Assembly (NCBI GenBank): GCA_013388635.1
Contig: JACAEX010000020.1
Coordinates: 5,826 to 69,825, forward strand
Length of the DNA stretch: 64,000 bases
Direction of reading: 5' to 3'
DNA from: Syntrophaceae bacterium
Lineage (GTDB): Bacteria > Desulfobacterota > BSN033 > UBA1163
Of the stretch, positions 23,979-47,243 are shown one piece after another. The position numbers and the translations under genes were made by a program. The notes below the pieces were generated by a model. It saw only the letters and a list, made by a program, of their open reading frames with translations, did not search any database and was not told the DNA's origin. The first letter of the stretch is position 1; each line of letters begins with the position of its first letter.

Positions 23979-23981
23979 GAG

Positions 23982-28803: not shown

Positions 28804-28866
28804 AGATTTAACCTCTTTAAGGTCGGTGCGGCCAGTATCCGTTTTTAGCGGACGGAGGTGAGATTC

Positions 28867-29313: not shown

Positions 29314-29682
29314 ATGATTCAGAGAAAGACAGGCTTTTCTTTGGTTGAGGTCCTGATTGGACTGATCTTCCTTGCCATCGGTCTTCTTGCCCTCGCTGGT
29401 TTGCAGATCACCTCCATCCGCGGTAATTCCTTCAGCCATCATTTGATGCAGGCCACCTACCAGGTTCAGGATCGCGTCGAAAGATTAAAAAATCTACCGC
29501 TTACCTCTCCTGAACTCCAGCCTGGAAGTCACAACCTCGAGCCCTTCACCCTTTCGGGTCTTGTCTTCAAACAGTCCTATACCGTCATTGAAGAAGCTGA
29601 TCTTAAGACGATCCATTACACGGTCGAATGGGACGACGGTGTTGGCCACAGGATCACCTTTTCGACGATCCGGTCGCAGTGA
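29314..29682 (+). CDS. pilV: Type IV minor pilin, PilV-like (cassette 2)
   Basis: MIQRKTG / FSLVEVLIGLIFLAIGLLALAGLQ. Confidence 0.65.
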   Translation: MIQRKTGFSLVEVLIGLIFLAIGLLALAGLQITSIRGNSFSHHLMQATYQVQDRVERLKNLPLTSPELQPGSHNLEPFTLSGLVFKQSYTVIEEADLKTIHYTVEWDDGVGHRITFSTIRSQ

Positions 29683-29687
29683 AAAGT

Positions 29688-30506: not shown

Positions 30507-30712
30507 GTCATGGTTACGAGACCCGTTTCATAACTTCTGATGTGGAGCATCGGAGATGAGGTGATGAGGAGAGGAATCTATTTCTCCCTATCCCCTCACC
30601 CCCTTATCTCCTTATTGATTATTGATTTTTTGCCGATACGGGCATCGTTACCCTGACCGGACGACGAGACCCTTATTTTCTGAGCAATTGAAAGATGGCA
30701 GGTTTCTGTTAT

Positions 30713-31159
30713 ATGGAAAGAAATATTTTAAAGAACAGAAAGGGGGTAGCGTTGATCATTGCCCTTCTGTTGCTACTTGCCCTGACGTTGATCGGAATCA
30801 GCTCGATCAATACGACGACGATTGAAACGGGTATCTCTGGAAACGATCGGGAGAAGGTCGATGCCTTTTATACGGCTGAGGCCGGGGTCCAGGTGGGAAT
30901 TCATCAAATTCCGGTTACATCCCCGATCCCAACGACCAAACTGAAGGAAAATTCCTACTATTGGAGCGGAACGGCAGATGACAGAGAAAACCCCAAGGCC
31001 TTTAAGTCCTTCGGAATTCACCAGATGCCCGGATTTGATTCCTCGTGGGCGTTTCGACGATATCAGATTAATGTGACAGGAGAATCCTTTAGATCGACAA
31101 GAGAGATAGAGGTTCAGGTGAGTTACGGCCCCTTTCGGGCGGATACGGATTACAACTGA
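30713..31159 (+). CDS. pilX: PilX-like minor pilin (cassette 2)
   Basis: MERNILKNRKGVALIIALLLLLALTLIGISSINTT PilX_N pattern; ATG 30713. Confidence 0.6.
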   Translation: MERNILKNRKGVALIIALLLLLALTLIGISSINTTTIETGISGNDREKVDAFYTAEAGVQVGIHQIPVTSPIPTTKLKENSYYWSGTADDRENPKAFKSFGIHQMPGFDSSWAFRRYQINVTGESFRSTREIEVQVSYGPFRADTDYN

Positions 31160-31190
31160 TTGGGCTTCTGGGTTTTAGAGGGAAGGGGAG

Positions 31191-31508
31191 ATGAGATATA
31201 GAGGAGGTTTATACATTGTTGTCTTTGCCATAGCTTTTCTTTTTCAAAACCAAACTTTTTCCCAGGTGAAGGTCGGGGAGACGGTTTCATTTACTGGGAT
31301 GATCGAGAGGGTCCAGGACGATCTCAAATTCATCGTCATCCATGAGATGAGGATTTTTATCACTACGGATACAAGGATAGTAGATGAGAACGGAGAGATG
31401 TTGAAGGTAGATGATCTGAGGCCGAAACTGAAAGTAGCCATTGAAGGGATTCGGAATCCAAATGGCTTCCTCGCAAAGAGGATTCTTCTTAAAAGCCCGA
31501 AGAAGTAA
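31191..31508 (+). CDS. Small secreted protein, paralog of 27405-27773; immediately upstream of pilY1 paralog 2
   Basis: Signal peptide; shared architecture (G.I.E.D.K.I.V.E...F......LAKKI.LL). Confidence 0.45.
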   Translation: MRYRGGLYIVVFAIAFLFQNQTFSQVKVGETVSFTGMIERVQDDLKFIVIHEMRIFITTDTRIVDENGEMLKVDDLRPKLKVAIEGIRNPNGFLAKRILLKSPKK

Positions 31509-34298
31509 GTGAAGATCAAGAAGCTTAACCCGGCGATACTCCTTATTTTTTTTCTCTCGATACCCCTCCATCATCTTCAGGCCGATGATACCGATCTCTT
31601 TATGACCAATGTGGAACCGGATGCGCTGATCCTTCTGGACAAATCCGGAAGCATGAATTTAGGCCCTGCAGGCTATCCTGTCAGTGACCCTAACAGAAAG
31701 ATCGATATTGCAAGAAAAGTCATTTTTGATCTTCTCGATCATAACGGGGATGGTCGGATCGACAATGCGGATGAAAAGAGTTTAAACGTGCGTCTGGGAT
31801 ATATGAGGTTCTGGAACTCAAACAGTAACGATGATGGTGAACCAAAAACAGGGGAGATCCAGATCTTATCAGCTTTGGGAAACTCGTACAGCAATATCTG
31901 GTCCAGCGTAAACCAGGAGCAGGAGCGTGATGGTCTGGGTGGTACGCCTTTAGCTGCCTCTCTATCAGAGGCCAGAACATACTTTACGCGGGACGTCAAT
32001 CCTTCGGATCCGGCCATCGATTGCAGGCAGAAGTTTCTGATCCTGATTACGGATGGGGAAGACACCTATGCCTGTGGCGGTGATGGGTCAGAGGGACAAG
32101 CGGATATGTTCAAAAGAAGAATCTTGACCATCCAAAGGGCCAAGGAGCTTTATGAGGCCGGAATCAAAGTCTTCGTTGTGGGATTGGGCCAAACCCTGTC
32201 AGAGCCTCTGAAAAGGACTTTAAACTGGACTGCAAGGTATGGAGGGACAGATAACCCTCTGGAGATGAACTCGGGAGACCCAGGTGCCTATGATGTGGCA
32301 AGATACAGCCCTGCCTGTTCAACCACGGATGCGAGTTCAGATCCAGCCAATTATCCCCTTTCTGGGTACGCCTTCTTAGCGTCGGATGCTTCCTATCTGA
32401 AAAAAGCAATAGAGGCTATTGCGAAGGAGGTTCGAGAAGGATCTTATTCTTTCACCGCTCCTTCGAGACCTACCGCTCAAATAGCTGACAGGGATGTCCT
32501 CTACCTCTCTTCCTTTACCCCCAACCGCACCCCCTTCTGGAAGGGAAATATCCGGGCATATCGCCTGGATGAAGATGGATTGTTTCCTGTGGATAAGGAT
32601 GGAAATCCTCTCAGATCGAGCCTGATCTGGGATGCATCTGAGAACCTCAAAGCGCTCTCGCCCGGTTCTCGAAAAATTTATACATATGTGAGTGGAAACC
32701 AGATACCTTTTGATTATGGACATTTAACCAATACCGATCTCGGTGTTTTCACAAATTGGGAAAGGCAAAGGCTGATTGACCATATCCGGGGCATCGATGC
32801 CTACGATGTGGACGGTGATGGGGATAGAAATGAAGCGAGAGAGTGGAGTCTCGGCGATATCTTTCATTCAAACCCCGTGATTGTGGGTGAACCCTCTCCC
32901 TTTTTTGAGGATCAGGGTTTTAGCGGGAAAGGGGGTTTTTATCAGTTGAGAAAGGATCGGACCAAGGTGGTCATTGCCGGCGCTAACGATGGGATGCTCC
33001 ATGCATTTGATGCAGCCACAGGAGATGAACAATGGGCTTTTATTCCAACCAGTCTGTTGAAGAATTTGAAACTGATGGCGTCTTCCCATACCTATTATGT
33101 CGATTCGACACCCAAAGTAGCTGATGTCTGGTTCTATAGCAGTCCTACAGATATGACGAAGAGTCCAGATGAATGGAGAACGGTTCTGATCTCAGGCCTG
33201 AGGAAGGGGGGAAAGGCCTACTTCGCTCTGGATATCACAGACACCTTAGACCCTAAGTATCTCTGGGAATTTCCGGCACCTTCGGACACAACGACTCTCG
33301 CAAAGGTCGGCCAGAGCTGGTCCGAGCCTGCCATCGGAAGGGTAAAGGTCGAGGTGGGAGACGGACTTTATGAGAGATGGGCAGCCTTCATCGGCGGAGG
33401 GTTTGACTACACGAACAGTACAGGAAGAGCTTTCTTTGTGATCGATATCAAATCGGGTGAGACTATTAAGGAGTTCTCTGGGCTGGAAGGCATGAATTAC
33501 GCATTTGCAGCTCCTCCAAAAGCGGTTGATACCAATTCGGACGGATATGTAGACAGGGTCTACGTGGGCGATCTGGGTGGCCAGATGTGGGTGTTCGATC
33601 TCTCATTTGATGAGGCGAAAAGAGAGAGCAACAGTCAGTGGACAGGAAAGAGACTTTTCGTAGCCCCGATTTCAGAGACTGAGGTCCATCGGATCTACTG
33701 TGAGCCTGCTGTTGCATTTGATCGATCTGGAACTCCCTGGGTCTATTTCGGGACTGGGGATAGAGAACGGCCCAACGATCTCTCAAATCCTAACGAGAGG
33801 TTCTATGCGGTGAAAGACAGTGGCATAGGAAGCTACCCGCGAAAGGAGACCGATCTCTCAGAGGTTACGTCTTCAAATACCTTCAAACCGGCGTCGAAAG
33901 AGGGCTGGTATCTCCGCTTGGAGCGATCAGCTCAAAATTCAGAGAAGGTGCTAACAAAACCGGTCGTCTTCAATAAACTTCTCTACTTTACTACGTATTT
34001 ATATACTGCAACCGAAAATCCCTGCCTTTTTTTAGGGGAGGGAAAACTCTACGTGCTTGAATCCCTCTCTGGAGGGGGAGCCCTAAGCTTTGATGATGCG
34101 ACTGTCTTAGAAGACACTCCATCCGAGCGGTCAAAAAAGATCGGCAGGGGAATCCCTTCTGCCCCTGCGGTCAGAGTGGATTTAAAAGGTAAGGCATGGG
34201 TGACCGTCGGAACGACCGAGGGTCAGGTTTTCTCAACCCCAATATTCTCTCCAGCCAGATCGAAGCAGATCCTTTATTGGCGAGAAGTCATTCCGTAA
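31509..34298 (+). CDS. pilY1: PilY1-like tip adhesin (paralog 2, 929 aa): signal peptide, vWA, PilY1 propeller
   Basis: GTG start; MIDAS ILLDKSGSMN; DTNSDGYVDRVYVGDLGGQMWVFDL Ca-loop. Confidence 0.8.
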   Translation: MKIKKLNPAILLIFFLSIPLHHLQADDTDLFMTNVEPDALILLDKSGSMNLGPAGYPVSDPNRKIDIARKVIFDLLDHNGDGRIDNADEKSLNVRLGYMRFWNSNSNDDGEPKTGEIQILSALGNSYSNIWSSVNQEQERDGLGGTPLAASLSEARTYFTRDVNPSDPAIDCRQKFLILITDGEDTYACGGDGSEGQADMFKRRILTIQRAKELYEAGIKVFVVGLGQTLSEPLKRTLNWTARYGGTDNPLEMNSGDPGAYDVARYSPACSTTDASSDPANYPLSGYAFLASDASYLKKAIEAIAKEVREGSYSFTAPSRPTAQIADRDVLYLSSFTPNRTPFWKGNIRAYRLDEDGLFPVDKDGNPLRSSLIWDASENLKALSPGSRKIYTYVSGNQIPFDYGHLTNTDLGVFTNWERQRLIDHIRGIDAYDVDGDGDRNEAREWSLGDIFHSNPVIVGEPSPFFEDQGFSGKGGFYQLRKDRTKVVIAGANDGMLHAFDAATGDEQWAFIPTSLLKNLKLMASSHTYYVDSTPKVADVWFYSSPTDMTKSPDEWRTVLISGLRKGGKAYFALDITDTLDPKYLWEFPAPSDTTTLAKVGQSWSEPAIGRVKVEVGDGLYERWAAFIGGGFDYTNSTGRAFFVIDIKSGETIKEFSGLEGMNYAFAAPPKAVDTNSDGYVDRVYVGDLGGQMWVFDLSFDEAKRESNSQWTGKRLFVAPISETEVHRIYCEPAVAFDRSGTPWVYFGTGDRERPNDLSNPNERFYAVKDSGIGSYPRKETDLSEVTSSNTFKPASKEGWYLRLERSAQNSEKVLTKPVVFNKLLYFTTYLYTATENPCLFLGEGKLYVLESLSGGGALSFDDATVLEDTPSERSKKIGRGIPSAPAVRVDLKGKAWVTVGTTEGQVFSTPIFSPARSKQILYWREVIP

Positions 34299-34397: not shown

Positions 34398-35369
34398 TTA
34401 GGAGTGATCTGTCTTCGTCTGGAGTCTCTTAATCCTCTCCTGGGCCTTGGAGAAAGAATGATCTAACTTCAAGACGGTGGTAAAGGTGCTCAAGGCCTCG
34501 GAGACCATTCCCTTGGCTTCATAAGCTAACCCTAAAGAGAAGTGGACGCGGGCCAATTTCTGATTTGACAATCCTGGCACCTTGGAGGCCAGCGTGTAGT
34601 ATTTGATCGATTGATCGTAATCGCCCTTCTCCATGAAGCAGTTCCCGAGCATGATATAGCAATCAAACCTTATCGGGCCACATGAAGCGGCCTGTTCAAA
34701 CTCAGAGATGGCATAATCGTAGAGCTCCATCTCTTTGTAGGCAATCCCCAAATGGTAATGCATTTGAGAATCCTTATCGGCATCTGCTGCAGACGACTCG
34801 CTCTCATAGGTCACCTCGCGTGGGATCTGTGGGGCAGGGGGAGGAGTGGGTTTCTGCTGGACCACCTTCTTTTCTAACGGAGGGAGGGATTCAGGGACAC
34901 GGGGCTGTGGTGGTGGAACAACCACCTTAGGAGGTTCTTTTGTTTCCTTCTGGCGGGCCTCGATATCCTCGAGTGCATGTCGGGCTTCCGTGTCGCCAGG
35001 TTTAATCTCCAGAACATTCTGATAATAGCTCTTTGCGCTTCCGATAAGCCCTTCTTTTAAATATAGTTTTGCTATCTTGTGAAAGGCTTCGACAAATTTT
35101 GGGTCGATCGAAAGGACTCTCTTATAGACAGAGATCGCCCGGAAATTCAAATCCTCTTCGGCATAGAGCTCGGCAAGCTTCAGATATTCTCCGATCGCCT
35201 TCTCCTTTTCTCCTTCTTTCAGGTAGAGATCCCCTAACTTCAGGTATAATCGCTTATCCTTAGGGGTAACCTCAATGAGTTTAAGGTACTCCTGGATTGC
35301 CTTCTTGGGCTGACCTTTGAGGACATACTTTTGGGCGAGGTCCAGTATCTTTTCTTTGTCGATAGCCAA
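34398..35369 (-). CDS. TPR-repeat protein with central Pro-rich linker (divergent from MglA operon)
   Basis: Multiple TPR-like helices (AIQEYLKLIEVTPKDKRLYLKLGDLYLKEG...), PPPQPRVPESLPPLEKK linker. Confidence 0.65.
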   Translation of the reverse strand: MAIDKEKILDLAQKYVLKGQPKKAIQEYLKLIEVTPKDKRLYLKLGDLYLKEGEKEKAIGEYLKLAELYAEEDLNFRAISVYKRVLSIDPKFVEAFHKIAKLYLKEGLIGSAKSYYQNVLEIKPGDTEARHALEDIEARQKETKEPPKVVVPPPQPRVPESLPPLEKKVVQQKPTPPPAPQIPREVTYESESSAADADKDSQMHYHLGIAYKEMELYDYAISEFEQAASCGPIRFDCYIMLGNCFMEKGDYDQSIKYYTLASKVPGLSNQKLARVHFSLGLAYEAKGMVSEALSTFTTVLKLDHSFSKAQERIKRLQTKTDHS

Positions 35370-35923: not shown

Positions 35924-36613
35924 ATGCCGAAGAATTTAAAGAAGGTTCTGATAGTTGACGATGAAGAGACCTTGACATGGAGCATGGCCAAAAGCCTCTC
36001 AAAAGATAAAGATAAATATGAGGTGATCATTGCCAACAATGGCCAAGAGGCCTTGACTCTCTTGGAACAGAACAGGGTTGATTTAGTGATCACTGACATA
36101 CGGATGCCAGACATTAATGGTCTGGATCTGCTTGTTAGAATAAGGAAGGAATACCCCCAAACCAAGGTCATCATCATGACGGCTTACGGCTCTTCCGACA
36201 TCCAGAAAGAGGCTACCCAGAGGGGATCTCTCTACTACGTGGAAAAGCCCTTTGAGATTTCAGACATAAGGAAGATCATCATCGATCTCATCGGACATAA
36301 AAAGGGATTCCGTGGAAAGGTATTTGGCCTCCAGCTGACCGATGTGATTCAGATGAACTGTCTGGGCAGACTCACCACAGCACTCATCATCACGCGGGAC
36401 GGCGAGAAGGGGATCATCTATTTGAACGAAGGGGAGATCGTCCATGCGGAATGCGGAGAACAGAAGGGAGCAGAGGCCTTCTATAACATCCTGAGCTGGC
36501 AGGAAGGGGAGTTCGTCTCAAATATTGGCTTCGCCGCCCCTGTGCAAACAATCTACCAGAGCTGGGAACATCTCCTGATCGAAGCGATGCGGAGGAATGA
36601 CGAAAAGGCATGA
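35924..36613 (+). CDS. Response regulator: REC domain plus C-terminal DUF4388 (PATAN-type) domain
   Basis: REC (VLIVDDEE...DLVITDIRMPDINGLDL...KVIIMTAYG); C-terminal KVFGLQLTDVIQMNCLGRLTTALIITRDGEKGIIYLNEGEIV. Confidence 0.7.
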   Translation: MPKNLKKVLIVDDEETLTWSMAKSLSKDKDKYEVIIANNGQEALTLLEQNRVDLVITDIRMPDINGLDLLVRIRKEYPQTKVIIMTAYGSSDIQKEATQRGSLYYVEKPFEISDIRKIIIDLIGHKKGFRGKVFGLQLTDVIQMNCLGRLTTALIITRDGEKGIIYLNEGEIVHAECGEQKGAEAFYNILSWQEGEFVSNIGFAAPVQTIYQSWEHLLIEAMRRNDEKA

Positions 36614-36654: not shown

Positions 36655-37074
36655 ATGGATATCATCATTACCAGAAAGGATCTCGAAAAGATAAACCTCT
36701 GCCTGGATAAGGTGGTCTCCTCCTCGCATGCGCACTCCGTGTTGCTCATCGACCGGTCGGGACAACTCATTGCGCACCATGGAAACACACCGGGGATCGA
36801 TATCCTATCCCTTTCTGCCCTGACCGCCGCCAATTTCGGAGCAACGGCAGAGATCGCCAGGATCCTGGGTGAGGAAGAGTTTACGCTCTTATTTCATAAG
36901 GGGAAGAACGAGAACGTCTATTTTTCAGCAATCGGAGAGCACGTTATCTTGGTGACCCTATTTGATGACAATACCTCATTAGGGTTGATCCGGCTGCAGA
37001 TCAATAAGATCATTGATGAGCTCTCGAGCATCCTCTCATCCATCTTTGAAGAGAAAGCGGTTCCGGCGAATTGA
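36655..37074 (+). CDS. mglB: MglB (Roadblock/LC7 GTPase-activating protein for MglA)
   Basis: Strong resemblance to recalled M. xanthus MglB incl. LFDDNTSLGLIRLQINKIIDEL. Confidence 0.8.
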   Translation: MDIIITRKDLEKINLCLDKVVSSSHAHSVLLIDRSGQLIAHHGNTPGIDILSLSALTAANFGATAEIARILGEEEFTLLFHKGKNENVYFSAIGEHVILVTLFDDNTSLGLIRLQINKIIDELSSILSSIFEEKAVPAN

Positions 37075-37104: not shown

Positions 37105-37731
37105 ATGCCTTTTATAAACTTCAGCAAAGACGAGATTCAATGCAAGATCGTCTACTATGGACCAGGATTTTGCGGAAAGACCACGAATCTTCAGTATATT
37201 TTTAGTCAGACGAGCGAAGAGATCAAAGGAAAGATGGTCTCCATCGATACAAAGGGGGATCGGACACTCTTTTTTGACTTTCTCTCCCTTAGCCTCGGAA
37301 AGATCCGGGGGTTCGATATCCGAGTTCAGCTCTACACCGTTCCAGGACAGGTCCACTATGATGCTACCAGAAAGCTGGTATTGAAGGGCGTCGATGGGGT
37401 TGTTTTCGTGGGAGATTCGTTGAAGGTTCAAAGGAAGAAGAATATTGAAAGTCTGATCAATCTGGCAAAGAATCTTGCCGAGAAGGGAATTAGCATCCGA
37501 TCCATTCCCCTTGTGATCCAATACAACAAACGCGATTTGGACGGGACCGATTCGGAGATCCTCCCTATTGAGGTGATGGAGAAGGATCTCAATTCGATGC
37601 TCAAAGTCCCCTCTTTTTCTGCCAGCGCCCTCAAGGGGGATGGCGTTTTCGAGACCCTCCGGGAGATCAGCAAGTTAGTGGTCAAAGATGTGAGCCGAAA
37701 GATCATGGTTCTCGACAAGCAGGTCCGGTGA
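37105..37731 (+). CDS. mglA: MglA (Ras-like polarity GTPase)
   Basis: MPFINFSKDEIQCKIVYYGPGFCGKTTNLQYIF ... LYTVPGQVHYDATRKL ... IQYNKRDL, near-collinear with recalled M. xanthus MglA. Confidence 0.85.
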   Translation: MPFINFSKDEIQCKIVYYGPGFCGKTTNLQYIFSQTSEEIKGKMVSIDTKGDRTLFFDFLSLSLGKIRGFDIRVQLYTVPGQVHYDATRKLVLKGVDGVVFVGDSLKVQRKKNIESLINLAKNLAEKGISIRSIPLVIQYNKRDLDGTDSEILPIEVMEKDLNSMLKVPSFSASALKGDGVFETLREISKLVVKDVSRKIMVLDKQVR

Positions 37732-37749: not shown

Positions 37750-38892
37750 ATGGAAAAGATAATCGGCGAGGATGAGATCAGGGGACTCGAAGAAGAGATC
37801 GACTCTGCTGTGGAACGGCTTTTCGTCGATAGAAAGGCTGACCGAACCGAGAGCCCATCGGTGAAGCCTCACCCCGCTCCTCCTCCGCAAAGGGCGAAGA
37901 AGGCCGATAGTGAGATCCCTGTGCATCCCCCGTCAGGACCCGCTTCGCCCTTGCAATCTTTTGACAAGATGGAGACGAGACTTCTTTCATTGGAGTGGGA
38001 GATAACAGGAGAGGACCTCGAAAAAACAAAAGAGGAAATCCAGGGCTTGCGAGAGGCCTTTAGAGAGAGACCGGATATCATCTCAGTTCTAAATTTGATG
38101 GCGAAGGTCATCATTCATATGACGCAAAATGAAGAAGGAATTCAACCTTCCCAGATCAAATTCCTGATGGATTCAAAAGAGACGATAAAGCTGCTGATGA
38201 AGGAAGACGCAGGGGCTGAATTCTCCGTTTACAAGCAGCTGGCCCTCAGCGGAATTGAGGCCAGGTATTTAGCTCTCGAAGGGATCAAACAGGCCCAAAC
38301 CAAACCACCGGCCTCAGGTCCAGGTGAGTTGACTCAGAGAGAAGCCTCGAAACCCCGGGACAAACAGTTTGAGCGGATGTTTAATAAAATGGATCTCCTT
38401 TTTGAGAAGATGTCAGATCTCCTGAAGAGATTTGAAGGCCATCTATCCACGTCTGAGGAGAAGAGCAGAGCACTGTCCAAACCCGAGGTTCGAAGGGGCC
38501 CTGTGCCAGTGGACATCACGCTCTTCAAAGCAGGAGAGAGACTGTTTGGAATTGAGAGCCAAAAGGTCTTCAAATTATTCAAGGTCCCGGATAGTTTTGA
38601 CGAGAGATATTCGGGTCAGCATAAGATACGGATGAAGGACTTTGAGATCAGGATGGTTGATTTGAAAGGCATCCTGTCGATCCAGAGCCGAGGTCGAAAA
38701 GGGGAGAGGCAATTGCTCACTGTAAAAGAAGACGGTGAGTACAAAGGACTGGTCGTCGATCAGATGGTGAAGAGGCTGACAACCGAAGTCGATACCGAAG
38801 GGGATTACGGTGAATATTTCTCAGGGGTGGTCCATTGGACCTACCAGGAAGTACCGCTGGAAATTCCTGTCTTAAATTTAAAAAGGATATAA
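37750..38892 (+). CDS. Pro-rich/coiled-coil protein with C-terminal CheW-like domain
   Basis: C-terminal about 130 aa (DITLFKAGERLFGIESQKVFKLFKVP...GLVVDQMVKRLTTEVDTEGDYGEYFSGV...VLNLKRI) matches CheW-fold pattern. Confidence 0.55.
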   Translation: MEKIIGEDEIRGLEEEIDSAVERLFVDRKADRTESPSVKPHPAPPPQRAKKADSEIPVHPPSGPASPLQSFDKMETRLLSLEWEITGEDLEKTKEEIQGLREAFRERPDIISVLNLMAKVIIHMTQNEEGIQPSQIKFLMDSKETIKLLMKEDAGAEFSVYKQLALSGIEARYLALEGIKQAQTKPPASGPGELTQREASKPRDKQFERMFNKMDLLFEKMSDLLKRFEGHLSTSEEKSRALSKPEVRRGPVPVDITLFKAGERLFGIESQKVFKLFKVPDSFDERYSGQHKIRMKDFEIRMVDLKGILSIQSRGRKGERQLLTVKEDGEYKGLVVDQMVKRLTTEVDTEGDYGEYFSGVVHWTYQEVPLEIPVLNLKRI

Positions 38893-38907: not shown

Positions 38908-40068
38908 ATGGAGCAGGGAATTTCAATTCGAGCCATCGGTGGCGGTAGGGTAAAAAAAGAGGAGACGATCCAGGCGCTGGCTCAGGAGTTAGAGGATGTC
39001 AAAAATTTCATGGATAGCGTCATCCAGAGCATCGGAAGCGGAATCATCATCACAGGGATGAACGATACCATTACCTACATCAACCGGGCAGGGGAGAGGC
39101 TTTCAGGGTATTCAAGGGAGGACGTGATCAACAAACCCTTCAGCATCTTTGCCCTGAGGGAAAAGCAGAGCGATATCCACGCCTTCTTCGATAATCCTGA
39201 TGATCATACGACGAGAAGGGAAGGGTGGATGAGGAGGAAGGACCATACCGAATTTCCCGTCGGATTTAGCATGAACGATCATGTCAATGTCAAGGGAGAG
39301 AGGATAGGCAAGATCGTGATCTTCCGCGATCTGACCAATGTGTATAAAATCCAGGAGGAAATATTGAGGATGGACCGCCTGGTGTCTCTGGGAAAACTGG
39401 CTTCGGGCATTGCGCATGAGCTTCGAAATCCCCTTGCCGGGATTAAGACGACCGCTCAGGCGCTTAGCGAGGAGATGCCGAAGGACGATCCCAAAAGAGA
39501 ATATCTAAATCGAATTACCAGGGAGATCGACCGGTTAAACGATCTCTTGAAGACCTTCTTCTCCTTTGCCAAGCCACAGGAATTGAATCTGGTTTACTGC
39601 CACATCCGAGAGGTGATCAATGAGATCATCCCATTTCTTTTCAAGGAGATTGCTGATCAGGGGATCCGGTTTAATGAAAGCTATGACCCAGAGCTCCCTA
39701 AGATCAAAGTTGATAAGGCCCAGATGCACCAGGCCTTTCTAAATCTCTTTTTGAATGCCATCCAGGCGATGCCCCGCGGAGGGGAGCTCAAGATTGAGGT
39801 GACGCCAACCACTCTGCAATCCTCTGATGGACTCAAACAGAACTTCGTTAAGATCATCATCTCCGATACAGGAAAAGGTATTCCTCCACATATCATTCAG
39901 AAAATTTTCGATCCGTTTTTTACAACGAAACCGAAAGGGATTGGGCTGGGCCTTTCGATCACCTATCAGATCATTAAGAAACACGGGGGGACGATTAAGG
40001 TCGAAAGTGAATGGGGCAAGGGAACTTCCTTCATCATCAATTTGCCGGAGGCGTTGGAGAACCCATGA
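38908..40068 (+). CDS. Cytoplasmic PAS-domain sensor histidine kinase
   Basis: PAS (ITGMNDTITYINRAGERLSGYSRED), H-box ASGIAHELRNPLAGI, G-boxes DTGKGI/GIGLGLS. Confidence 0.8.
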   Translation: MEQGISIRAIGGGRVKKEETIQALAQELEDVKNFMDSVIQSIGSGIIITGMNDTITYINRAGERLSGYSREDVINKPFSIFALREKQSDIHAFFDNPDDHTTRREGWMRRKDHTEFPVGFSMNDHVNVKGERIGKIVIFRDLTNVYKIQEEILRMDRLVSLGKLASGIAHELRNPLAGIKTTAQALSEEMPKDDPKREYLNRITREIDRLNDLLKTFFSFAKPQELNLVYCHIREVINEIIPFLFKEIADQGIRFNESYDPELPKIKVDKAQMHQAFLNLFLNAIQAMPRGGELKIEVTPTTLQSSDGLKQNFVKIIISDTGKGIPPHIIQKIFDPFFTTKPKGIGLGLSITYQIIKKHGGTIKVESEWGKGTSFIINLPEALENP

Positions 40069-41441
40069 GACCTTCGATTCTTATTGTAGATGATGATGAG
40101 GTCCTGCGAGAGACCCTTTTTGATGTCTTTCGGAAGAAGGGTTACGAGGTTTTTTCTGCGGGAACGGGAGACGAAACCCTCACAGTCATAAGAAGGTATC
40201 TTGTCGATCTAATTCTTCTGGATATGCGACTCCCGGATGTGGACGGATTGGATATCTTGAAGAAGATTAAGGAGTTGGATACCGAGATTTTGGTCATTAT
40301 GATGACCGCCTACTCCGATGTCCAGAGCGCGGTGAAGGCGATGAAGTCAGGAGCTTACGACTACATCAACAAGCCCTTCGAATTAGAGGAATTGCAGCTG
40401 CTGGTTGAAAAGGGTCTGGAGACGAAGAGCCTGATCAACGAGGTGCGGAGACTCCATCGGCAACATCGGGTGGAGCACAGGGACAGCCATATTTACGGGG
40501 TGAGCCCGCAGATTCAATACGTGAGAGAAATGATCGAAATGATCAGCAAAACCAATAAGACCTCTGTCCTGATTCAGGGAGAGAGCGGAACGGGCAAAGA
40601 GCTGGCGGCCAATGCCATCCATTTCAGCAGCAAACGGAGCGCCAAACCTCTGATGAAGATTAATTGCAGCGCCATTCCCGATTCGTTATTGGAGTCGGAA
40701 CTCTTTGGATATGAGAAAGGTGCTTTTACCGACGCAAAGACCACGAAGAAGGGGCTTTTTGAACTGGCAGATGGAGGGACGGTCTTCCTGGACGAGATTG
40801 GAGAGATGAAGCCCTTTTTGCAGTCAAAGATACTAAGAGTTCTTGAAAATCAGACATTTATGAGAGTGGGCGGGGAAAGGGAGATCAAGGTCGATGTCCG
40901 AGCGATTGCAGCGACCAATCGGGACCTGGAGCAGATGGTCAGGGATGGGCTCTTTCGAAAGGATTTATACTACAGGTTAAAGGTGATGGTGGTTGAGATG
41001 CCACCTCTCCGTGAAAGAGTGGAGGATATTCTCCTTCTTGCGAAGTTGTTCGTCGAGGAGAACAATAAGGAATACAATAAGGATGTCAAAGGATTTTCCG
41101 AGGAGGCAAAGAAATTGCTGGTTCAGTACTCATGGCCAGGGAATGTAAGAGAATTGAAAAATGTGATTGAAAGAGCGATGATTTTGACTGATGGGGAGTA
41201 CATCACACCCAAACAGCTCCCGTTTGAATTAAAGCAAACCGAACCTAACTGTGCGGTGAAGGTGATTTCTGATCTCTCTGATCCAGTGCTTGGGATTTCC
41301 CTGGAGGATATGGAGAGAAGTCATATCTCAAATGTTCTCAAGAGGCTGGAATGGAATAAGTCGAAGGCATCGAAGGCCTTGGGGATTTCTCGAGCGACTT
41401 TGAGGGCAAAGATCAAAAGATACAGCCTTGATGCAATTTAG
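40065..41441 (+). CDS. Sigma-54-dependent response regulator (NtrC family)
   Basis: ATG 40065 overlaps kinase stop (ATGA); REC, GESGTGKEL, GAFTDA, C-terminal HTH. Confidence 0.85.
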   Translation: MRPSILIVDDDEVLRETLFDVFRKKGYEVFSAGTGDETLTVIRRYLVDLILLDMRLPDVDGLDILKKIKELDTEILVIMMTAYSDVQSAVKAMKSGAYDYINKPFELEELQLLVEKGLETKSLINEVRRLHRQHRVEHRDSHIYGVSPQIQYVREMIEMISKTNKTSVLIQGESGTGKELAANAIHFSSKRSAKPLMKINCSAIPDSLLESELFGYEKGAFTDAKTTKKGLFELADGGTVFLDEIGEMKPFLQSKILRVLENQTFMRVGGEREIKVDVRAIAATNRDLEQMVRDGLFRKDLYYRLKVMVVEMPPLRERVEDILLLAKLFVEENNKEYNKDVKGFSEEAKKLLVQYSWPGNVRELKNVIERAMILTDGEYITPKQLPFELKQTEPNCAVKVISDLSDPVLGISLEDMERSHISNVLKRLEWNKSKASKALGISRATLRAKIKRYSLDAI

Positions 41442-41579: not shown

Positions 41580-42638
41580 ATGCTCTGGGGTAGAAAAAAG
41601 GACGTGATTGGTCTGGATATTGGGTCAAGTTCAATCAAACTTGTCGAACTGGCCCAGGGCAAGAGCGGGTATAGGTTACAAAATCTGGGAATCTCCCCCC
41701 TGCCGCCGGAGGCCATTGTTGACGGGGCTTTGATGGACTCGGTCACCATCATCGACACCATTCGGGAGCTGGTCAACACGACGAAAGTGAAGACCAAGGA
41801 TGTGGTGACATCTGTATCAGGCCACTCCGTCATCGTCAAAAAGATTACATTGCCCTTCATGACAGAGGCTGAATTGGAGGAATCGATCAAGTGGGAAGCA
41901 GAAAGGTACATTCCGTTTGATATCAACGACGTCAACATCGATTTCCAGATATTCGGTTCCAATGCAGAAAATCCCGAGATGATGGACGTCGTTCTAGTGG
42001 CTGCGAAAAAGGATATCATCAACGATTATGTCTCGGTGATTATGGAGGCCGGGCTCAACCCGGTGATCATCGATGTCGATGTTTTTGCGCTGGAGAATAT
42101 GTTGGCGATCAATTACGAGATCGCCAAAGACGAAGTGGTCGCCATTGCGAATGTCGGTGCGAGCACCACGAACATCAATATCCTCAAAAACAATGTCTCA
42201 GGTTTTACAAGGGACATCTTCAAAGGAGGGAATCAAATCACAGAAGATATCCAGAGGCAACTCCATGTGGACCACCAAGAGGCAGAAGAGATCAAGGTGG
42301 GCAGCAAGATGGATGTCGCCTCCCGAACGATCGTTCAGAATCTATTGAAGAAGGGCTCCGAATCATTGGCTGTCGAAATCCGAAACTCACTCGACTTCTA
42401 TCAATCGTCGACCACCTATGAAAAGATCAGCAAGTTACACCTGAGCGGGGGCGGATCGAGGATTAAGGATTTCGATCTCATCCTTCAGGAGGAAATCGGG
42501 ATTCCCGTTGAGGTCGTGGATCCTTTTAGAAAGATAGAGTGCAACGAGAAGAAGTTCGATCTCGAGTATTTAAAGGAGATCGGACCGGTCATGGCCGTGG
42601 GAGTCGGCCTCGCTTCAAGAAAGGTTGGAGATCGATGA
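41580..42638 (+). CDS. pilM: Type IV pilus assembly ATPase-fold protein PilM
   Basis: IGLDIGSSSIKLVEL actin-like fold N-terminus. Confidence 0.85.
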   Translation: MLWGRKKDVIGLDIGSSSIKLVELAQGKSGYRLQNLGISPLPPEAIVDGALMDSVTIIDTIRELVNTTKVKTKDVVTSVSGHSVIVKKITLPFMTEAELEESIKWEAERYIPFDINDVNIDFQIFGSNAENPEMMDVVLVAAKKDIINDYVSVIMEAGLNPVIIDVDVFALENMLAINYEIAKDEVVAIANVGASTTNINILKNNVSGFTRDIFKGGNQITEDIQRQLHVDHQEAEEIKVGSKMDVASRTIVQNLLKKGSESLAVEIRNSLDFYQSSTTYEKISKLHLSGGGSRIKDFDLILQEEIGIPVEVVDPFRKIECNEKKFDLEYLKEIGPVMAVGVGLASRKVGDR

Positions 42639-43171
42639 TAAAGATCAATCTGCTTGCGATACGCAAGGAAAAGAAGAAGATCAAGATAAGAAAGGAGTTC
42701 CTCGTTCTCATTCCGGCTCTCGTCCTTGAGTTTGCCTTTATCGGCTTTATGGAATGGAAAATGGACAAAGAAAAGGCTGAGCTTTTGGAGAGTATATCGA
42801 AAGCTAAAAAAGAGAACGACTATTATAAGTCTTTGATGACGGAGGTCAAAAAGGCCAAGGAGTCGCAGAAGATCCTTCAGGACAAGCTAAACGTCATCAA
42901 TTCGTTGAGAAAGCAAAAGGCCGTGCCTGCCAGGGTATTGGACGAGATCAGCATGAACAAGCCGGATAAAATCCAACTGGATTCTCTGAAGAAGGAGGGA
43001 GCCAAATTGGGGATTGAAGGACTCGCTTTGGATGACGAAACCGTGGCCAATTTTATGACCAACCTTCGGAGATCAAAGGTCTTTAAATCGGTTGATCTGA
43101 TCGTCACCGAGCAGGTCGAGCAGAGCAAATTCAAGTTGAAGAAGTTCATCCTTTCATGCGAAATTTCATAG
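42635..43171 (+). CDS. pilN: PilN
   Basis: MIKINLLAIRKEKKK N-terminus plus single TM; ATG 42635 overlaps pilM stop. Confidence 0.75.
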   Translation: MIKINLLAIRKEKKKIKIRKEFLVLIPALVLEFAFIGFMEWKMDKEKAELLESISKAKKENDYYKSLMTEVKKAKESQKILQDKLNVINSLRKQKAVPARVLDEISMNKPDKIQLDSLKKEGAKLGIEGLALDDETVANFMTNLRRSKVFKSVDLIVTEQVEQSKFKLKKFILSCEIS

Positions 43172-43193
43172 ATCTCACTCAGGAGGAGACCCA

Positions 43194-43835
43194 ATGGCAC
43201 TTAAGGCAGATGCCATCTTTAAGCTTTCAACACCGAAGAAGGTCCTCCTGCTGGTCGCCCTCTTAGGGATGATCGCAGGTCTCTACCTCCATTTCTCCTT
43301 CAGTGGTCGGCGGGAGGAGATCAAGCTCTTGAAGGCGGACCTCGATAAGTTGATCAAGGAGCTGAACGGGAACAAAACGATCACCCGGGATCTTCAAAAA
43401 TTCAAGGAACAGCTTGCGAAGATGGACGAGGAACTGGCAAGGGCGGTCACCCAGCTCCCCAATGAAAAAGAGATTCCGGAGATACTGAAAAACATTGCCA
43501 GCCTCGGGAAGGAGTCGAATCTTGAATTTACCCTCTTCAGGCCCAAGGCCGAAGTCCCCCAACAGTTCTATGCGAAGGTTCCGATCGAGCTCACGGCATT
43601 AGGAAGTTATCATAATACTGGCATCTTCTTCGACAGGGTGAGCAAGCTTCCAAGAATTATTAATGTGATCGACTTCAATATGACCAGAGTAAAAGATGCG
43701 AAGGCAAAGGCGGGCGGTGAGATCTTAGTAAGGACCTCGTGTCTGGTCAACACCTACCGTTTCATAGAGAAGAAGAGCGTGGAGAAAGAAAAGAAAATTG
43801 AGCAGAAGAAAGGCGAGGAGAAGAAGCATGAGTAA
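43194..43835 (+). CDS. pilO: PilO
   Basis: Single TM plus coiled coil plus conserved PilO core (LPRIINVIDFNM). Confidence 0.7.
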   Translation: MALKADAIFKLSTPKKVLLLVALLGMIAGLYLHFSFSGRREEIKLLKADLDKLIKELNGNKTITRDLQKFKEQLAKMDEELARAVTQLPNEKEIPEILKNIASLGKESNLEFTLFRPKAEVPQQFYAKVPIELTALGSYHNTGIFFDRVSKLPRIINVIDFNMTRVKDAKAKAGGEILVRTSCLVNTYRFIEKKSVEKEKKIEQKKGEEKKHE

Positions 43836-44409
43836 AAATAGGTTCCTCTCAGGAAAGGAAAAGGGTTCTCAAGAGAATAGGACTCTCTACTCTCTGCTGT
43901 CTCTATGGGCCGTCTTTCTTTTCATGGTGGCCAGCTGCGGAGGAAGTTCTCCTCCTCCTGTTCAAAAGGCAAAACCTCTCGCGGTGGAGAAGAAGATGGC
44001 GGAAAGTGCAAAGGCACCTGAGAAGAAGGATCAGGAGGAGAAGAAGGAGCCCGAGTACGTTTACAACCCGGCAGGAAAACCGGATCCCTTTAAGCCATTT
44101 ATCCAATTGGAATCTGTAAAAGAGGTTGCCAAGACCGCTCCGCTTACCCCCTTGCAAAAATACGATGTCAGTCAATTGAAGTTGGTGGCTATTATTACGT
44201 CAGCGGAAGGGGGAATCGCTATGGTCGAAGATGCCACTGGCAAAGGATACTCTTTGCGAAAGGGGACGGGGATCGGGAAACATGACGGGAAGGTGAAGAA
44301 GATCCTTAAGGACAGGGTGATCATTGAAGAAGTGTATGAGGATACGCTTGGCCAGAAAAAAGTTCATGAGATTTCATTGTTTCTTCATAAAGAGGGAGGA
44401 GAGTCATGA
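43828..44409 (+). CDS. pilP: PilP lipoprotein
   Basis: Lipobox MVASC; C-terminal beta domain KGYSLRKGTGIGKHDGKVKKI; start 43828 or 43798. Confidence 0.65.
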   Translation: MSKNRFLSGKEKGSQENRTLYSLLSLWAVFLFMVASCGGSSPPPVQKAKPLAVEKKMAESAKAPEKKDQEEKKEPEYVYNPAGKPDPFKPFIQLESVKEVAKTAPLTPLQKYDVSQLKLVAIITSAEGGIAMVEDATGKGYSLRKGTGIGKHDGKVKKILKDRVIIEEVYEDTLGQKKVHEISLFLHKEGGES

Positions 44410-47243
44410 GATCATATCGCCTGATTAAAACCATCTCTTTTCTCACCGGGTTGCTCTTGTTGAGTGGTTGCGCTGTAAGCAGACCTTCCATAGAGGCCCC
44501 AAGCCCAGGCACTCCAGATATCGCAACAAAGGCAGGAAGAGTTTCTGCCATCGAGGGGATAACTTTTACAGAGGAGGAGAATTTTACAAGGATTAAGATC
44601 TCGGGTTCTGAAACCCTCGAGGCCCCTTTCTATAAACTCTTGACCGACCCCCTCAGACTTATCATCGATCTTCCAAATGTCGACTTGAAACAGCTGAGGG
44701 ACCCGATCAAGATTGAAAATGGGACGGTCGGTGAGGTCACAGCCACTCAATTGGATGACAAGGGAAGGATCGAGATCGGTCTCCTTCAGATGACGAACTA
44801 CAATATCTCAAAGGAAGAGAAGGATCTGATCATCGATATCGAAAAAATCAAGGCGATTGCTGAGGCGAAGGAAGGAGAAAAGCCAGAGGAACCGGTGAAA
44901 GAGAAGGAAGCTGAGATCCCTCCTCCGGAGATGAAGAAAGAGGAGGCCGTGCAGGTTCAACCTGTTGAGACACCTCCAGTCCAAGAGGTGAGCAAGAAGG
45001 CGAAGAATATCCTCACCGTCTCACTGGATCAGAAGAAGGACTCCATTACGTTCCAGATCATCGCTGACGGAAGCATTGGCAACTACAATGCGTTCAAACT
45101 GGATTCCCCTTCGAGGTTGGTCCTTGACATCTGGGAGGTGGGCAGCCGCTATCCGAAAGATTTGATCAAAATTCAAAATCGGTTGATCAAACAGGTCCGA
45201 ATTGGACGCCACCCGGATAAGATGAGGTTCGTCTTCGATTCTCTCAAACCCCAACTCCCCCCTTACCAGATCAATCGGATGGATGATAAGCTGATGGTCT
45301 CATTCGGGAAGGTTCCGCAGCCATCAGAGCCCCAAATTTTAGTGCCCGAAAAGCCCAGCGTAGGGGTCCCGGCACCGAAGGCTCGGGTGAATGCCCCGAT
45401 CGAATTTAAACAGATGGATAATAAGTCAAGGATCGTCGTATCGCTGACAGAGGAGCCAAAATTTGAATCTCAGTTGATTTCAAAAGATGTGATCGCGGTC
45501 GATATCAAGAATGCATTCGTTCCCAGGCGCCTCCAGAGGGAATTGGATACGAGCGCATTCGACAGCGCTGTCAAGTCGGTCGAGCTCAAAAACATCAGGT
45601 CAGGAGAGGCAAGCGATGTCAGAATCTTGATCAGATTAAAAGAAGAGGTGCCGTTTGAAACCGCTCAGGAAGGGAAGTCGCTGCTTATTGACATCGAGAG
45701 GCCTAAGAAGGCCGAGGCCAAGATAGGGGCTCCCTCAGAGATCAAAAGGGAGGAAGTGTCGCAGGAGTCGAGGAAAGAGGAGCCCAAAGAAGAAGCGGTG
45801 AAGAAAGAAGGAGAGGTCAAGAAGGAGGTTAAGGAAGAGGTTAAGAAAGAGGAGGCCAAGCCTTCTCCTGAGGGAAAAAAGACCGAGAAGGGCACCCCCA
45901 GGGCTGAGGAGAAGCCTCTTTCAGTAATTCCGCCGGTGAAAAAAGCGGAAGAGGAGAAGAAGGTGATCGAAGAAGCCCCTTCGGAAAAGGTCTATACCGG
46001 CAGGAGGGTATCCCTCGATTTCAAAGATGCCGATATTAAGAATATCCTCCGGCTGATCGCAGAGGTGAGCAACTTCAATATCATCACAGGGGATGATGTT
46101 TCAGGAAAGATCACGATGCGATTGGTCGATGTCCCCTGGGATCAGGCTCTGGATGTGATCTTGCAGGCGAGATCTCTCGGAATGAAAAAGGTCGGAAATG
46201 TGATCCGGATCGCGCCCCTCGATACCCTGAAGAAGGAGATTCAGACAGAGCTCGAGGCAAGAAGGGCGAAGGAGAAGCTGGAGGATCTGATGACCGAGCT
46301 CATCCCGGTCAACTATGCCACGGCCAAGGAGATCCTGCCCCAGGTCAAGAGCATCCTGAGTGAGCGAGGGGACATCAAGGTCGATGATCGGACGAATATC
46401 TTAATCGTCAAGGATATTGCTCGAAATATCGCTGCCGCAAAGAGCCTGATCAAATCGCTGGATACGAAGACGCCCCAGGTTCTGATCGAGGCCAGGATCG
46501 TGGAGGCCACGCTGACGTTTCAGAGGGACCTTGGTATTTCGTGGGGATTTTTGGCAGAGAAGGGAACGGACAAGAGGAGGACCTACTCGGTCGGGGGAGG
46601 GACAGCAGGGGAGAGCACCCTGAGAGCGCCCTCGGGAACTGCTTCGGTTGACACTCGAAAATTCGTCGATCTACCTACGAGCACGGCAGCAGGTCTCCTT
46701 GAATTTCTTTTCACCTCCGATTATGGGCTAAAGAATCTCGATGTTGCCATATCGGCTTATGAGAGCAAGGGAGATGTTAAGGTGATCTCGAGCCCAAAGA
46801 TCGCTACACTCGATAACAAAGAGGCATCGGTCGAGCAGGGGCTGAGGATTCCATATACCAAACTGACCACAGAGGGGACTGTAACAGAGGAGTTTATCGA
46901 GGCCAATCTGAAATTGATAGTAACCCCTCATGTGACCAACGACGGCCACATCAAAATGAGTATCAAAGTCAAAAAGGATGAACCGAGCAAGGCATTTGTA
47001 AGCAAGAGTGATACCCCGAGCATCGATAAGAAAGAGGCGATCACCGAGGTGCTGGTCAAAGATAACGGAGTGGTGGCGATCGCTGGTATCTATACGATCA
47101 AAAACGATCGGGGAACCACGGGCGTCCCATTTCTAAGTAAGATTCCCGTGCTGGGCTGGCTCTTTAAGAAGGAATCGAAGACGAATGACACGAAGGATTT
47201 ATTGATTTTCATCTCACCCAAGATCTTTAAGGATCAGGTTTAA
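44406..47243 (+). CDS. pilQ: PilQ secretin lipoprotein with three N-terminal AMIN domains, a Lys/Glu-rich low-complexity linker, N0/N1 and secretin domains
   Basis: Lipobox LLSGC; C-terminal secretin signature TTGVPFLSKIPVLGWLFK. Confidence 0.85.
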   Translation: MRSYRLIKTISFLTGLLLLSGCAVSRPSIEAPSPGTPDIATKAGRVSAIEGITFTEEENFTRIKISGSETLEAPFYKLLTDPLRLIIDLPNVDLKQLRDPIKIENGTVGEVTATQLDDKGRIEIGLLQMTNYNISKEEKDLIIDIEKIKAIAEAKEGEKPEEPVKEKEAEIPPPEMKKEEAVQVQPVETPPVQEVSKKAKNILTVSLDQKKDSITFQIIADGSIGNYNAFKLDSPSRLVLDIWEVGSRYPKDLIKIQNRLIKQVRIGRHPDKMRFVFDSLKPQLPPYQINRMDDKLMVSFGKVPQPSEPQILVPEKPSVGVPAPKARVNAPIEFKQMDNKSRIVVSLTEEPKFESQLISKDVIAVDIKNAFVPRRLQRELDTSAFDSAVKSVELKNIRSGEASDVRILIRLKEEVPFETAQEGKSLLIDIERPKKAEAKIGAPSEIKREEVSQESRKEEPKEEAVKKEGEVKKEVKEEVKKEEAKPSPEGKKTEKGTPRAEEKPLSVIPPVKKAEEEKKVIEEAPSEKVYTGRRVSLDFKDADIKNILRLIAEVSNFNIITGDDVSGKITMRLVDVPWDQALDVILQARSLGMKKVGNVIRIAPLDTLKKEIQTELEARRAKEKLEDLMTELIPVNYATAKEILPQVKSILSERGDIKVDDRTNILIVKDIARNIAAAKSLIKSLDTKTPQVLIEARIVEATLTFQRDLGISWGFLAEKGTDKRRTYSVGGGTAGESTLRAPSGTASVDTRKFVDLPTSTAAGLLEFLFTSDYGLKNLDVAISAYESKGDVKVISSPKIATLDNKEASVEQGLRIPYTKLTTEGTVTEEFIEANLKLIVTPHVTNDGHIKMSIKVKKDEPSKAFVSKSDTPSIDKKEAITEVLVKDNGVVAIAGIYTIKNDRGTTGVPFLSKIPVLGWLFKKESKTNDTKDLLIFISPKIFKDQV

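Follow-up and report, generated by a model that had tools for sequence, protein, structure and literature searches.

What is a protein with a CheW-like domain doing between the gene for the polarity GTPase MglA and that for a histidine kinase, in a region where no chemosensory system is encoded? The question is raised by a gene, here termed gene X (product: X), at positions 37750-38892 of a 64,000-nucleotide stretch of contig JACAEX010000020.1 from a Syntrophaceae bacterium (assembly GCA_013388635.1); this whole stretch is referred to below as the window. MglA and MglB form a model system for bacterial front-rear polarity, and to our knowledge nearly everything known of their partners (RomR/RomX, RomY, MglC, SgmX, and others) comes from Myxococcus. 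The initial annotation of the locus described X as a CheW adaptor tied to the polarity GTPase and preceded by 250 Pro-rich/coiled-coil residues. Comparison of related loci leads to another picture: mglA is accompanied not so much by CheW as by a helical domain in the N-terminal region, termed LEWEIT, which recurs without CheW in cable-bacterial proteins. With a probability of about 0.5, we favor the reading that X is a non-enzymatic scaffold, which would be physically coupled to MglA/MglB. Our functional statements on X are based on comparative genomics and on fold evidence that is weak to moderate.

X comprises five parts, namely an N-terminal motif (N-motif), a Pro-rich linker, the LEWEIT domain, a short Pro-rich linker with a long helix, and the CheW-like domain. 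These features, with the evidence used to delimit them (AF2, AlphaFold 2 model; pLDDT, predicted local distance difference test score), are as follows:

37750..38892 (stop codon included), plus strand: gene X, open reading frame (ORF) with ATG start encoding a multi-domain protein of 380 amino acids
37765..37833, plus strand: N-motif, residues 6-28 (GEDEIRGLEEEIDSAVERLFVDR), a predicted amphipathic acidic helix (homologue alignment, AF2)
37834..37953, plus strand: linker, residues 29-68, Pro/Ser/Glu-rich and disordered (poor conservation, pLDDT ~30)
37954..38295, plus strand: LEWEIT domain, residues 69-182, a predicted five-helix bundle resembling CheA P1/HPt, the histidine phosphotransfer domain (alignment A2, AF2, Foldseek, hhalign)
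38356..38457, plus strand: predicted long single helix, residues 203-236 (AF2, low confidence; helix 9-42 in the sub-model)
38497..38889, plus strand: CheW-like (CheA-P5-like) domain, residues 250-380 (subthreshold Pfam match, family profile, Foldseek)

An exhaustive search with the LEWEIT profile retrieved 260 cluster representatives at E<=1e-3, and these display three architectures. Family a, the type of X, combines the N-motif, one LEWEIT copy, the helix, and the CheW-like domain. Family b, from the cable bacteria Candidatus Electronema and Electrothrix, starts with two tandem LEWEIT copies and continues into a hyper-acidic tail of 500-1200 residues (21-36% Asp+Glu); some of its entries are annotated 'FimV'. 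Family c (P0211, P0238, and P0194) contains one or two N-motif-like segments, two or three LEWEIT copies, and a C-terminal region without an assigned fold. When read by eye, this last region had seemed CheW-like, an assignment that we dropped given the hhalign values (P=0.12 with family a, P=0.99 with E. coli CheW). Pfam returned nothing for ten matches sampled from E~1e-12 down, mostly members of family b plus P0238 of family c.

The three architectures share a genomic context. Genes of family a are located between mglA and the PAS kinase gene in 19/19 loci with upstream flank, and this adjacency of three genes is kept in the loci of P0188 and P0189, which are ~25% identical to X and whose MglA proteins are 74-82% identical. 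Genes of family b follow mglB-mglA directly in 5/5 loci, the corresponding GTPases being 53-57% identical to the window MglA and carrying the canonical motifs. Genes of family c lie directly 3' of an MglB-like Roadblock gene in 2/2 loci, one of which adds a second mglB-mglA pair, two genes for PilB-like ATPases, a PilZ gene, and a CheB-like gene. The family b genes are located at:

L023 8001-11828; L024 955-3531; L025 1590-4405; L032 5001-9005; L033 5001-7145: family b genes directly after mglB-mglA

The loci of family b contain no pilus genes, their neighbors being dnaB, leuS, lptE, lpxC, and lpxK, so that mglB/mglA, and neither the pilus genes nor the CheW domain, are the common denominator. 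Since LEWEIT is found next to mglB/mglA in three different designs, it is a likely partner of the polarity switch.

Two side observations concern these loci. Cable bacteria and their relatives encode hyper-acidic proteins of 700-1400 residues with up to 36% Asp+Glu, repeated 'LDSFFNFDDE'-type motifs, and two LEWEIT domains; these may be polar hubs for MglA in gliding cable bacteria. Besides, fusions of PATAN (PatA_N) with Roadblock/LC7, and of PATAN with a receiver (REC) domain and a CheB methylesterase domain, are encoded near LEWEIT genes (L033 1-622; L028 1-82; L029 22630-23120), and they suggest a wider PATAN/Roadblock/chemosensory network around MglA.

In the window itself, gene X is surrounded by the following genes:

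34398..35369, minus strand: TPR protein with a Pro-rich middle, divergently transcribed (TPR Pfam matches)
35924..36613, plus strand: response regulator, REC plus C-terminal PATAN (DUF4388) (PF00072, 8e-29; PF14332, 4.5e-20)
36655..37074, plus strand: mglB, Roadblock/LC7 protein of 139 amino acids (PF03259, E=2.6e-14)
37105..37731, plus strand: mglA, 208 amino acids, directly 5' of gene X (Arf/Ras Pfam matches)
38908..40068, plus strand: soluble PAS-HisKA-HATPase histidine kinase (PAS-HK), directly 3' of gene X (Pfam)
40011..41441, plus strand: sigma-54-dependent response regulator, PilR-like (Pfam, comparison of loci)
41580..47243, plus strand: pilM, pilN, pilO, pilP, and pilQ (synteny with locus L002, tblastn across loci)

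The same order, from the TPR gene on the opposite strand through REC-PATAN, mglB, mglA, X, PAS-HK, and the sigma-54 regulator to pilMNOPQ, is observed in 19/19 loci with upstream sequence. The GTPase upstream of X is a canonical MglA, as it displays the motifs KIVYYGPGFCGKT, DRTLFFDF, and TVPGQ and follows a Roadblock/MglB gene; the product of the latter scores 73.7 bits with the MglB NCBIfam model, which is under the cut-off of that model. The REC-PATAN gene is present in all loci with enough flank. The TPR gene is kept in 16 of the loci extending that far, with 52-73% identity in syntenic loci. TPR proteins are known as MglA partners in other bacteria (SgmX in Myxococcus and Bd2492 in Bdellovibrio). 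The pil assignments rely on Pfam calls in L002 (PilM_2, PilN, PilO, PilP, and Secretin).

Gene X is a real, expressed-looking gene located directly 3' of mglA, as initially annotated. It is preceded by a Shine-Dalgarno sequence (AAGGA, 9 nt 5' of the start), and its start codon is fixed because the homologues are conserved from Met1 on. The gaps that separate it from the mglA stop codon and from the PAS-HK start are 18 nt and 15 nt, respectively. A promoter and terminator scan of the 34-42 kb region returned no site above background and no terminator-like site in either gap; mglB, mglA, gene X, and the kinase gene after it are most likely transcribed together. Its product is 100% identical to P0001 ('hypothetical protein HXY46_03570 [Syntrophaceae bacterium]'), and a database search yielded 644 homologues from metagenome-assembled genomes of Syntrophaceae/Thermodesulfobacteriota. 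For the analysis of the family, homologue-level features were counted on 30 aligned homologues, hidden Markov model (HMM) mapping was performed on 147 cluster representatives, and 120 homologues were listed. No NCBIfam model matched X. In X and the 30 members scanned, CheW was the sole Pfam match and no catalytic domain was found.

The N-terminal 250 residues had been described as Pro-rich and coiled-coil. The quoted Pro-rich stretches do exist, at residues ~39-68 (HPAPPPQRAKK...) and 185-192 (PPASGPG), but residues 69-182 form a strongly conserved, folded helical domain and residues 6-28 a nearly invariant helix; what was taken for a linker is the most informative part of X. The LEWEIT domain has a mean column identity of 78% (alignment A2) and the signature LLSLEWEIT ... 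LNLMxKVL ... I.P..IKFLLDSKETIKLLM ... YKQLA..GIEAR. AF2 predicts helices at residues 67-79, 90-103, 108-126, 133-150, and 156-175, with pLDDT values of 60-89. None of the Pfam and NCBIfam models matches the domain, and a word-indexed homologue search with its alignment yielded only 21 short fragments.

Apart from CheA-P5 and CheW structures, the top Foldseek matches of the X model were CheA P1 (HPt) domains, i.e. those of Salmonella (1i5n), of R. sphaeroides CheA3 (3kyi/3kyj), and of E. coli (2lp4 and 8c5v), with probabilities of 0.96-1.0, a TM score of ~0.5 on the target, and E values of ~1.5e-2 to 7e-2; for 1i5n, 3kyi, and 2lp4, the probability is 0.99-1.0 at E values of ~1.5e-2. The same likeness was obtained by profile comparison. 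With hhalign, the LEWEIT alignment matched the single E. coli CheA P1 sequence with 27% identity over 77 columns (E=0.011), and 176 LEWEIT copies compared with 101 CheA-P1 sequences gave a score of 26.6 (P=3.2e-4, 81 columns), as against 14.7 for reversed alignments and 15.1 +/- 2.2 (maximum 21.3) for 30 block-shuffled HPt alignments. The full-length family profile is collinear with residues 20-110 (P1) and 554-602 (P5) of E. coli CheA, each of these matches being weak. We assign the LEWEIT domain, with moderate confidence, to the distant P1/HPt-like bundles.

From the Foldseek, hhalign, and collinear CheA matches, a P1-like domain followed by a P5-like domain is found in X at moderate confidence. 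The CheA core domains P4 (HATPase_c) and P3 (H-kinase_dim) are absent from X according to Pfam, and a single long helix lies between the two domains. X thus has the appearance of a CheA remnant in which P1 and P5 were retained while P2, P3, and P4 were lost, a resemblance that had been missed at first. No histidine is invariant or even 90% conserved in the 30-sequence alignment. CheA His48 faces either a Pro beside an 8-residue deletion (in one alignment) or a variable Gln/Leu position (in the broad alignment). Phosphotransfer via X is very unlikely because there is no conserved histidine and the His48 position lies opposite a deletion or a variable residue, and we rejected this role.

The C-terminal ~130 residues were initially proposed to be CheW-like. 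This assignment holds at the family level, as PF01584 matches 29/30 aligned homologues (best E=1.5e-8) and a precomputed match to it exists for about half of the 120 listed homologues, and as the family profile matches a solved CheW structure (2qdl, from Thermoanaerobacter; E=2.1e-5, profile positions 249-343). X taken alone falls short of it: PF01584 aligns with residues 257-353 (E=0.002), but neither the 18.2 bits scored by the whole protein nor the 21.7 bits obtained with only residues 248-380 reach the gathering score of 23.5 bits. CheW sequence blocks can nevertheless be recognized in X (..LFGIES.., ..MVDLKKIF.., and ..YKGLMVDQV..), and its nearly invariant K296 aligns with R62 of E. coli CheW. 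From these sequence comparisons, we accept a CheW-like domain of divergent form in X and consider the assignment firm for the family.

X could then be an ordinary, if decorated, CheW coupling protein of a chemosensory array encoded elsewhere, for example one of the type IV pilus (Tfp) class, its position after mglA reflecting membership of a pilus regulon. The near-universal CheW-like domain of the family, the match of its profile to a solved CheW, and the conserved Lys at the R62-equivalent position fit such a role, as do the CheB-like genes found in some family c neighborhoods and a published description according to which chemosensory systems alone use the CheW domain (PMC10542144). However, Pfam scans of the window, which covered every ORF of at least 150 amino acids plus smaller non-overlapping ORFs, detected no CheA, MCP (methyl-accepting chemotaxis protein), CheB, CheR, CheW, or single-domain CheY, in agreement with the first description of the locus; gene X is an orphan within the window. 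Likewise, no Che genes were found in the ~8 kb flanks of 20 related loci. An ordinary coupling protein would also leave the conserved N-terminal two thirds of X unexplained, the domain of X is divergent and under the Pfam cut-off, and LEWEIT domains adjoin mglBA without any CheW. We consider this explanation unlikely, although it is the most probable of the alternatives to the favored reading.

A scaffold role linked to MglA is a reasonable reading because the CheW-like domain is real at the family level and because X is in strict synteny with mglA and PAS-HK. The part of the original idea that is not supported is that the CheW domain is the link to the GTPase. In the favored reading, X would be a CheA-derived adaptor of the MglA/MglB module, having lost its kinase core, within a type IV pilus super-cluster. 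Its LEWEIT domain would contact MglA, probably in the GTP form, or MglB, in the way the helical bundle RomX bridges MglA-GTP and the receiver domain of RomR (bioRxiv 10.1101/2024.02.20.581209). The CheW-like domain may anchor the complex to the adjacent soluble PAS kinase, as initially suggested, or to a chemoreceptor/CheA array encoded elsewhere; the evidence that would link X to PAS-HK is their conserved adjacency. The N-terminal EID..A.D.LF helix would dock a further conserved partner; given the likeness of the motif to the CheY-binding N-peptide of FliM, REC-PATAN is a candidate for this role. The nucleotide state of MglA would in this way be coupled to two-component or chemosensory control of pilus polarity or expression by scaffolding instead of phosphotransfer, much as FimL acts as a His-less HPt scaffold in pilus signaling (PMC3019171). 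A more specific version is that LEWEIT is an MglA/MglB-binding module that evolved from CheA P1, that its fusion to P5/CheW wires the GTPase into a chemosensory-type or two-component signaling scaffold without phosphotransfer, and that its combination with a FimV/RomR-like acidic region makes a polar MglA hub in cable bacteria; we regard this version as possible but doubtful.

The N-motif, with the consensus GE[DN]DIKGLEEEIDSAVDRLFVEK, is a candidate docking peptide judging from its conservation. Its core, E-I-D-S-A-V-D-R-L-F, is nearly unchanged in 111/120 listed homologues, AF2 predicts a helix at residues 7-25, and the motif also occurs in distant members and in family c, sometimes twice. 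In its EID-x-A-[VL] core and in the spacing of its hydrophobic residues (i, i+3, i+4), the N-motif is similar to the FliM N-peptide that binds CheY-P (MGDSILSQAEIDALLN). Families a and c, in whose loci PATAN/REC proteins are encoded, carry the N-motif, whereas family b has a different, acidic DLFEF motif instead and at least 2/5 of its loci are without a PATAN/REC regulator within 5-8 kb; another family b locus, L033, encodes a fusion of PATAN with Roadblock, and also has a single REC gene, within ~6 kb. The co-occurrence of the N-motif with PATAN/REC loci is a lead pointing to REC-PATAN docking. In the linker that follows, homologues such as P0057 and P0116 have insertions or repeats of up to ~100 residues. 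As a side observation, the linkers of P0057, P0116, and P0047 have grown by tandem peptide repeats, e.g. ~21-residue 'TEMLSTEPLPHESPVDKKSTL' units. The length of family a proteins varies from 372 to 593 residues, with the flanking modules fixed, because of this repeat expansion. The long helix at residues 203-236 was found by HMM in most family members and gave no database match; from the model, it is a possible coiled-coil or dimerization element and, speculatively, a remnant of CheA P3.

Several results weigh against this reading or against the folds on which it builds. X evolves far faster than its neighbors, with 39-57% identity between syntenic loci as compared with 89-95% for MglA, which is unusual for the tight partner of a very conserved GTPase, though conservation is high in the N-motif and the LEWEIT core. 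Family c genes have no directly adjoining mglA, and the conserved adjacency in the other families could reflect co-expression only. Regarding the HPt likeness, the hhalign probability is only 39%, Pfam Hpt matches 0/30 members, a PDB sequence search with the LEWEIT profile gave no match at E<=1, and the Foldseek search with the X model gave none at E<=1e-3. Structure prediction, which had been suggested as a check of the CheW fold (a double SH3-like beta-barrel), did not confirm it: the best Foldseek matches of this region are CheA P5/CheW structures (2ch4, of CheA P4-P5/CheW, 2qdl, and 4jpb), but only at E=0.008-0.07 and with a root-mean-square deviation of 11-12 Å, and the region has a pLDDT of 56-74 in the full-length model; the model of residues 196-380 alone, built from 31 diverse sequences, had a pLDDT of 42 and was not used for the fold search.

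A closer connection to the GTPase is also conceivable, X being a catalytic regulator of the GTPase cycle of MglA/MglB (an exchange factor for guanine nucleotides (GEF), a GTPase co-activator (co-GAP), or a protein resembling GDP-dissociation inhibitors (GDI)) and thus a counterpart of RomR/RomX or RomY. Such a function would suit the position of LEWEIT genes by mglB-mglA in three architectures and the precedent of RomX for small helical bundles that bind MglA-GTP. The hyper-acidic tail of family b presumably also resembles the Glu-rich C-terminal region of RomR. On the other hand, the top 50 Foldseek matches do not include the RomX structure (8ZNA), no PDB sequence is found with the LEWEIT profile, and the GEF role of RomRX is itself disputed (PMC13408092). 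We consider a catalytic regulator rather improbable.

The remainder of the window bears on a third explanation, according to which X serves the pilus machine as an accessory, for example by binding PilM, PilB, or the TPR protein, with no direct relation to MglA, the adjacency being an operon accident inherited in the lineage. The window shows a type IV pilus super-cluster, in which pilD is followed by a HAMP kinase with a sigma-54 regulator, and which has two sets of pilW, pilX, and pilY1 together with minor pilins between the HAMP kinase pair and the TPR gene. Every family a locus is a pilus cluster with pilMNOPQ on the 3' side, and contacts between PATAN regulators and the PilB motor have been reported from cyanobacteria (bioRxiv 10.1101/2021.06.11.447907). 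Nevertheless, family b genes follow mglB-mglA in loci devoid of pilus genes, and we hold the accessory role to be improbable. Alternatively, X could serve a split kinase as its phosphotransfer half, in the manner of CheA3 with CheA4 in Rhodobacter, in a relay from PAS-HK via the P1-like domain to REC-PATAN or to the sigma-54 regulator. The P1-like plus P5-like layout of X, the kinase gene that adjoins in every locus, and the existence of CheA architectures without HATPase_c speak for this relay. However, there is no invariant or near-invariant histidine in the family, a deletion or non-His residue in the His48 region, no Pfam Hpt match in any of the 30 members, and a neighboring kinase of the classical HisKA type, which has a phospho-acceptor domain of its own and not a P3-P4-P5 CheA core; we consider the relay very improbable.

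Other features of the window were recorded. Two kinase/sigma-54 regulator pairs are present in the super-cluster, at 18950-22145 (HAMP kinase, by pilD/pilW) and 38908-41441 (PAS kinase, by mglA/pilM). The pilus tip/minor-pilin module is doubled (22386-34298), with two PilY1-like genes (23982-27170 and 31509-34298), two PilX_N genes, and several N_methyl prepilin-like ORFs. A gene at 58692-60239 encodes a 515-residue protein of odd architecture, with a sigma-54-interaction AAA+ domain, a lid, and a HisKA phospho-acceptor domain, in which no receiver, helix-turn-helix, or HATPase_c domain was detected; it is flanked by genes for a seven-transmembrane (7TM)-GAF histidine kinase (56518-58695) and a sigma-54 response regulator (60268-61635). 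The glycosyltransferase/ABC-transporter/methyltransferase block at 1-12000 has a G+C content of 0.38-0.41, compared with 0.46-0.50 elsewhere in the window, and may be a horizontally acquired polysaccharide cluster. A small ORF of the '23S rRNA-intervening sequence protein' family (PF05635, E=6e-28) is located at 53782-54045 on the minus strand, inside an otherwise gene-poor gap of 2 kb.

The LEWEIT domain is a concrete candidate for a new partner of MglA/MglB outside the myxobacteria. If the favored reading is true, the CheA parts P1 and P5 would have been re-used without the kinase and outside any visible chemosensory operon. Should the CheW-like domain dock on a receptor array or on the neighboring kinase, X would join chemosensing or two-component signaling to a small GTPase switch directly, as a structural bridge; in Myxococcus, the link from chemosensing to MglA is indirect, via the Frz response regulators. 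Our literature search found no description of the X family, of the LEWEIT domain, or of a protein with a CheW domain or HPt-like domain linked to MglA; a survey of prokaryotic small GTPases (Wuichet and Sogaard-Andersen, PMC4316618) reports only PATAN-domain proteins near some mglA genes.

How does X compare with known systems? Like Myxococcus xanthus RomX, which acts with RomR, it contains a small all-helical module with a probable functional tie to MglA, and its locus also encodes a receiver protein (REC-PATAN). Unlike LEWEIT, a five-helix HPt-like bundle, RomX is a three-helix bundle of ~90 residues with an atlastin-stalk-like fold, and no homology was detected by sequence or fold (8ZNA in the top 50 Foldseek matches; LEWEIT profile against the PDB at E<=1), so that the analogy would be functional only. 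With Pseudomonas aeruginosa FimL, X shares a non-catalytic HPt-like domain without the phospho-accepting His (replaced by Gln in FimL), and FimL acts in polar type IV pilus signaling; family b, with LEWEIT, a FimV-like acidic region, and entries named 'FimV', recalls it as well. In contrast to X, FimL has neither a CheW domain nor a link to MglA; P. aeruginosa uses PilG/PilH and FimV instead of MglA/MglB, and FimL was not among the top 50 Foldseek PDB matches of the X model.

The PF01584 adaptors CheW, CheV, and Myxococcus FrzB resemble X in having a CheW-like domain (~130 residues at the C-terminus of X), no enzymatic domain, and a presumed coupling role. They differ from it in that X has 380 residues, three extra conserved N-terminal modules, and a domain under the Pfam cut-off, and in that its gene lies between those for MglA and a HisKA kinase with no MCP or CheA gene nearby. 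Close in layout are the split or kinase-less CheA proteins (CheA3 of Cereibacter (Rhodobacter) sphaeroides as well as the architectures CheA.XI and CheA.XII described by Vass et al.; PMC10542144; bioRxiv 10.1101/2022.05.07.491035), which like X have a P1/HPt-like N-terminus and a P5/CheW-like C-terminus without a working ATP-binding domain; the P1 structure of CheA3 (3kyi) is among the best fold matches of X. However, P1 of CheA3 keeps its phosphorylatable His, which is phosphorylated by CheA4, CheA3 retains degenerate P2, P3, and P4 where X has a single long helix, and CheA3 acts in a chemoreceptor cluster, whereas the kinase next to X is of the HisKA type and not CheA4-like. FimL and some of the ChpA domains are precedents for His-less HPt domains (PMC3019171; PMC10542144). 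The CheW-like domain, the His-less HPt, and the kinase-less CheA layout are thus known building blocks; new are the unmodelled LEWEIT domain and the consistency with which it accompanies mglB/mglA, in Syntrophia-like and cable bacteria alike.

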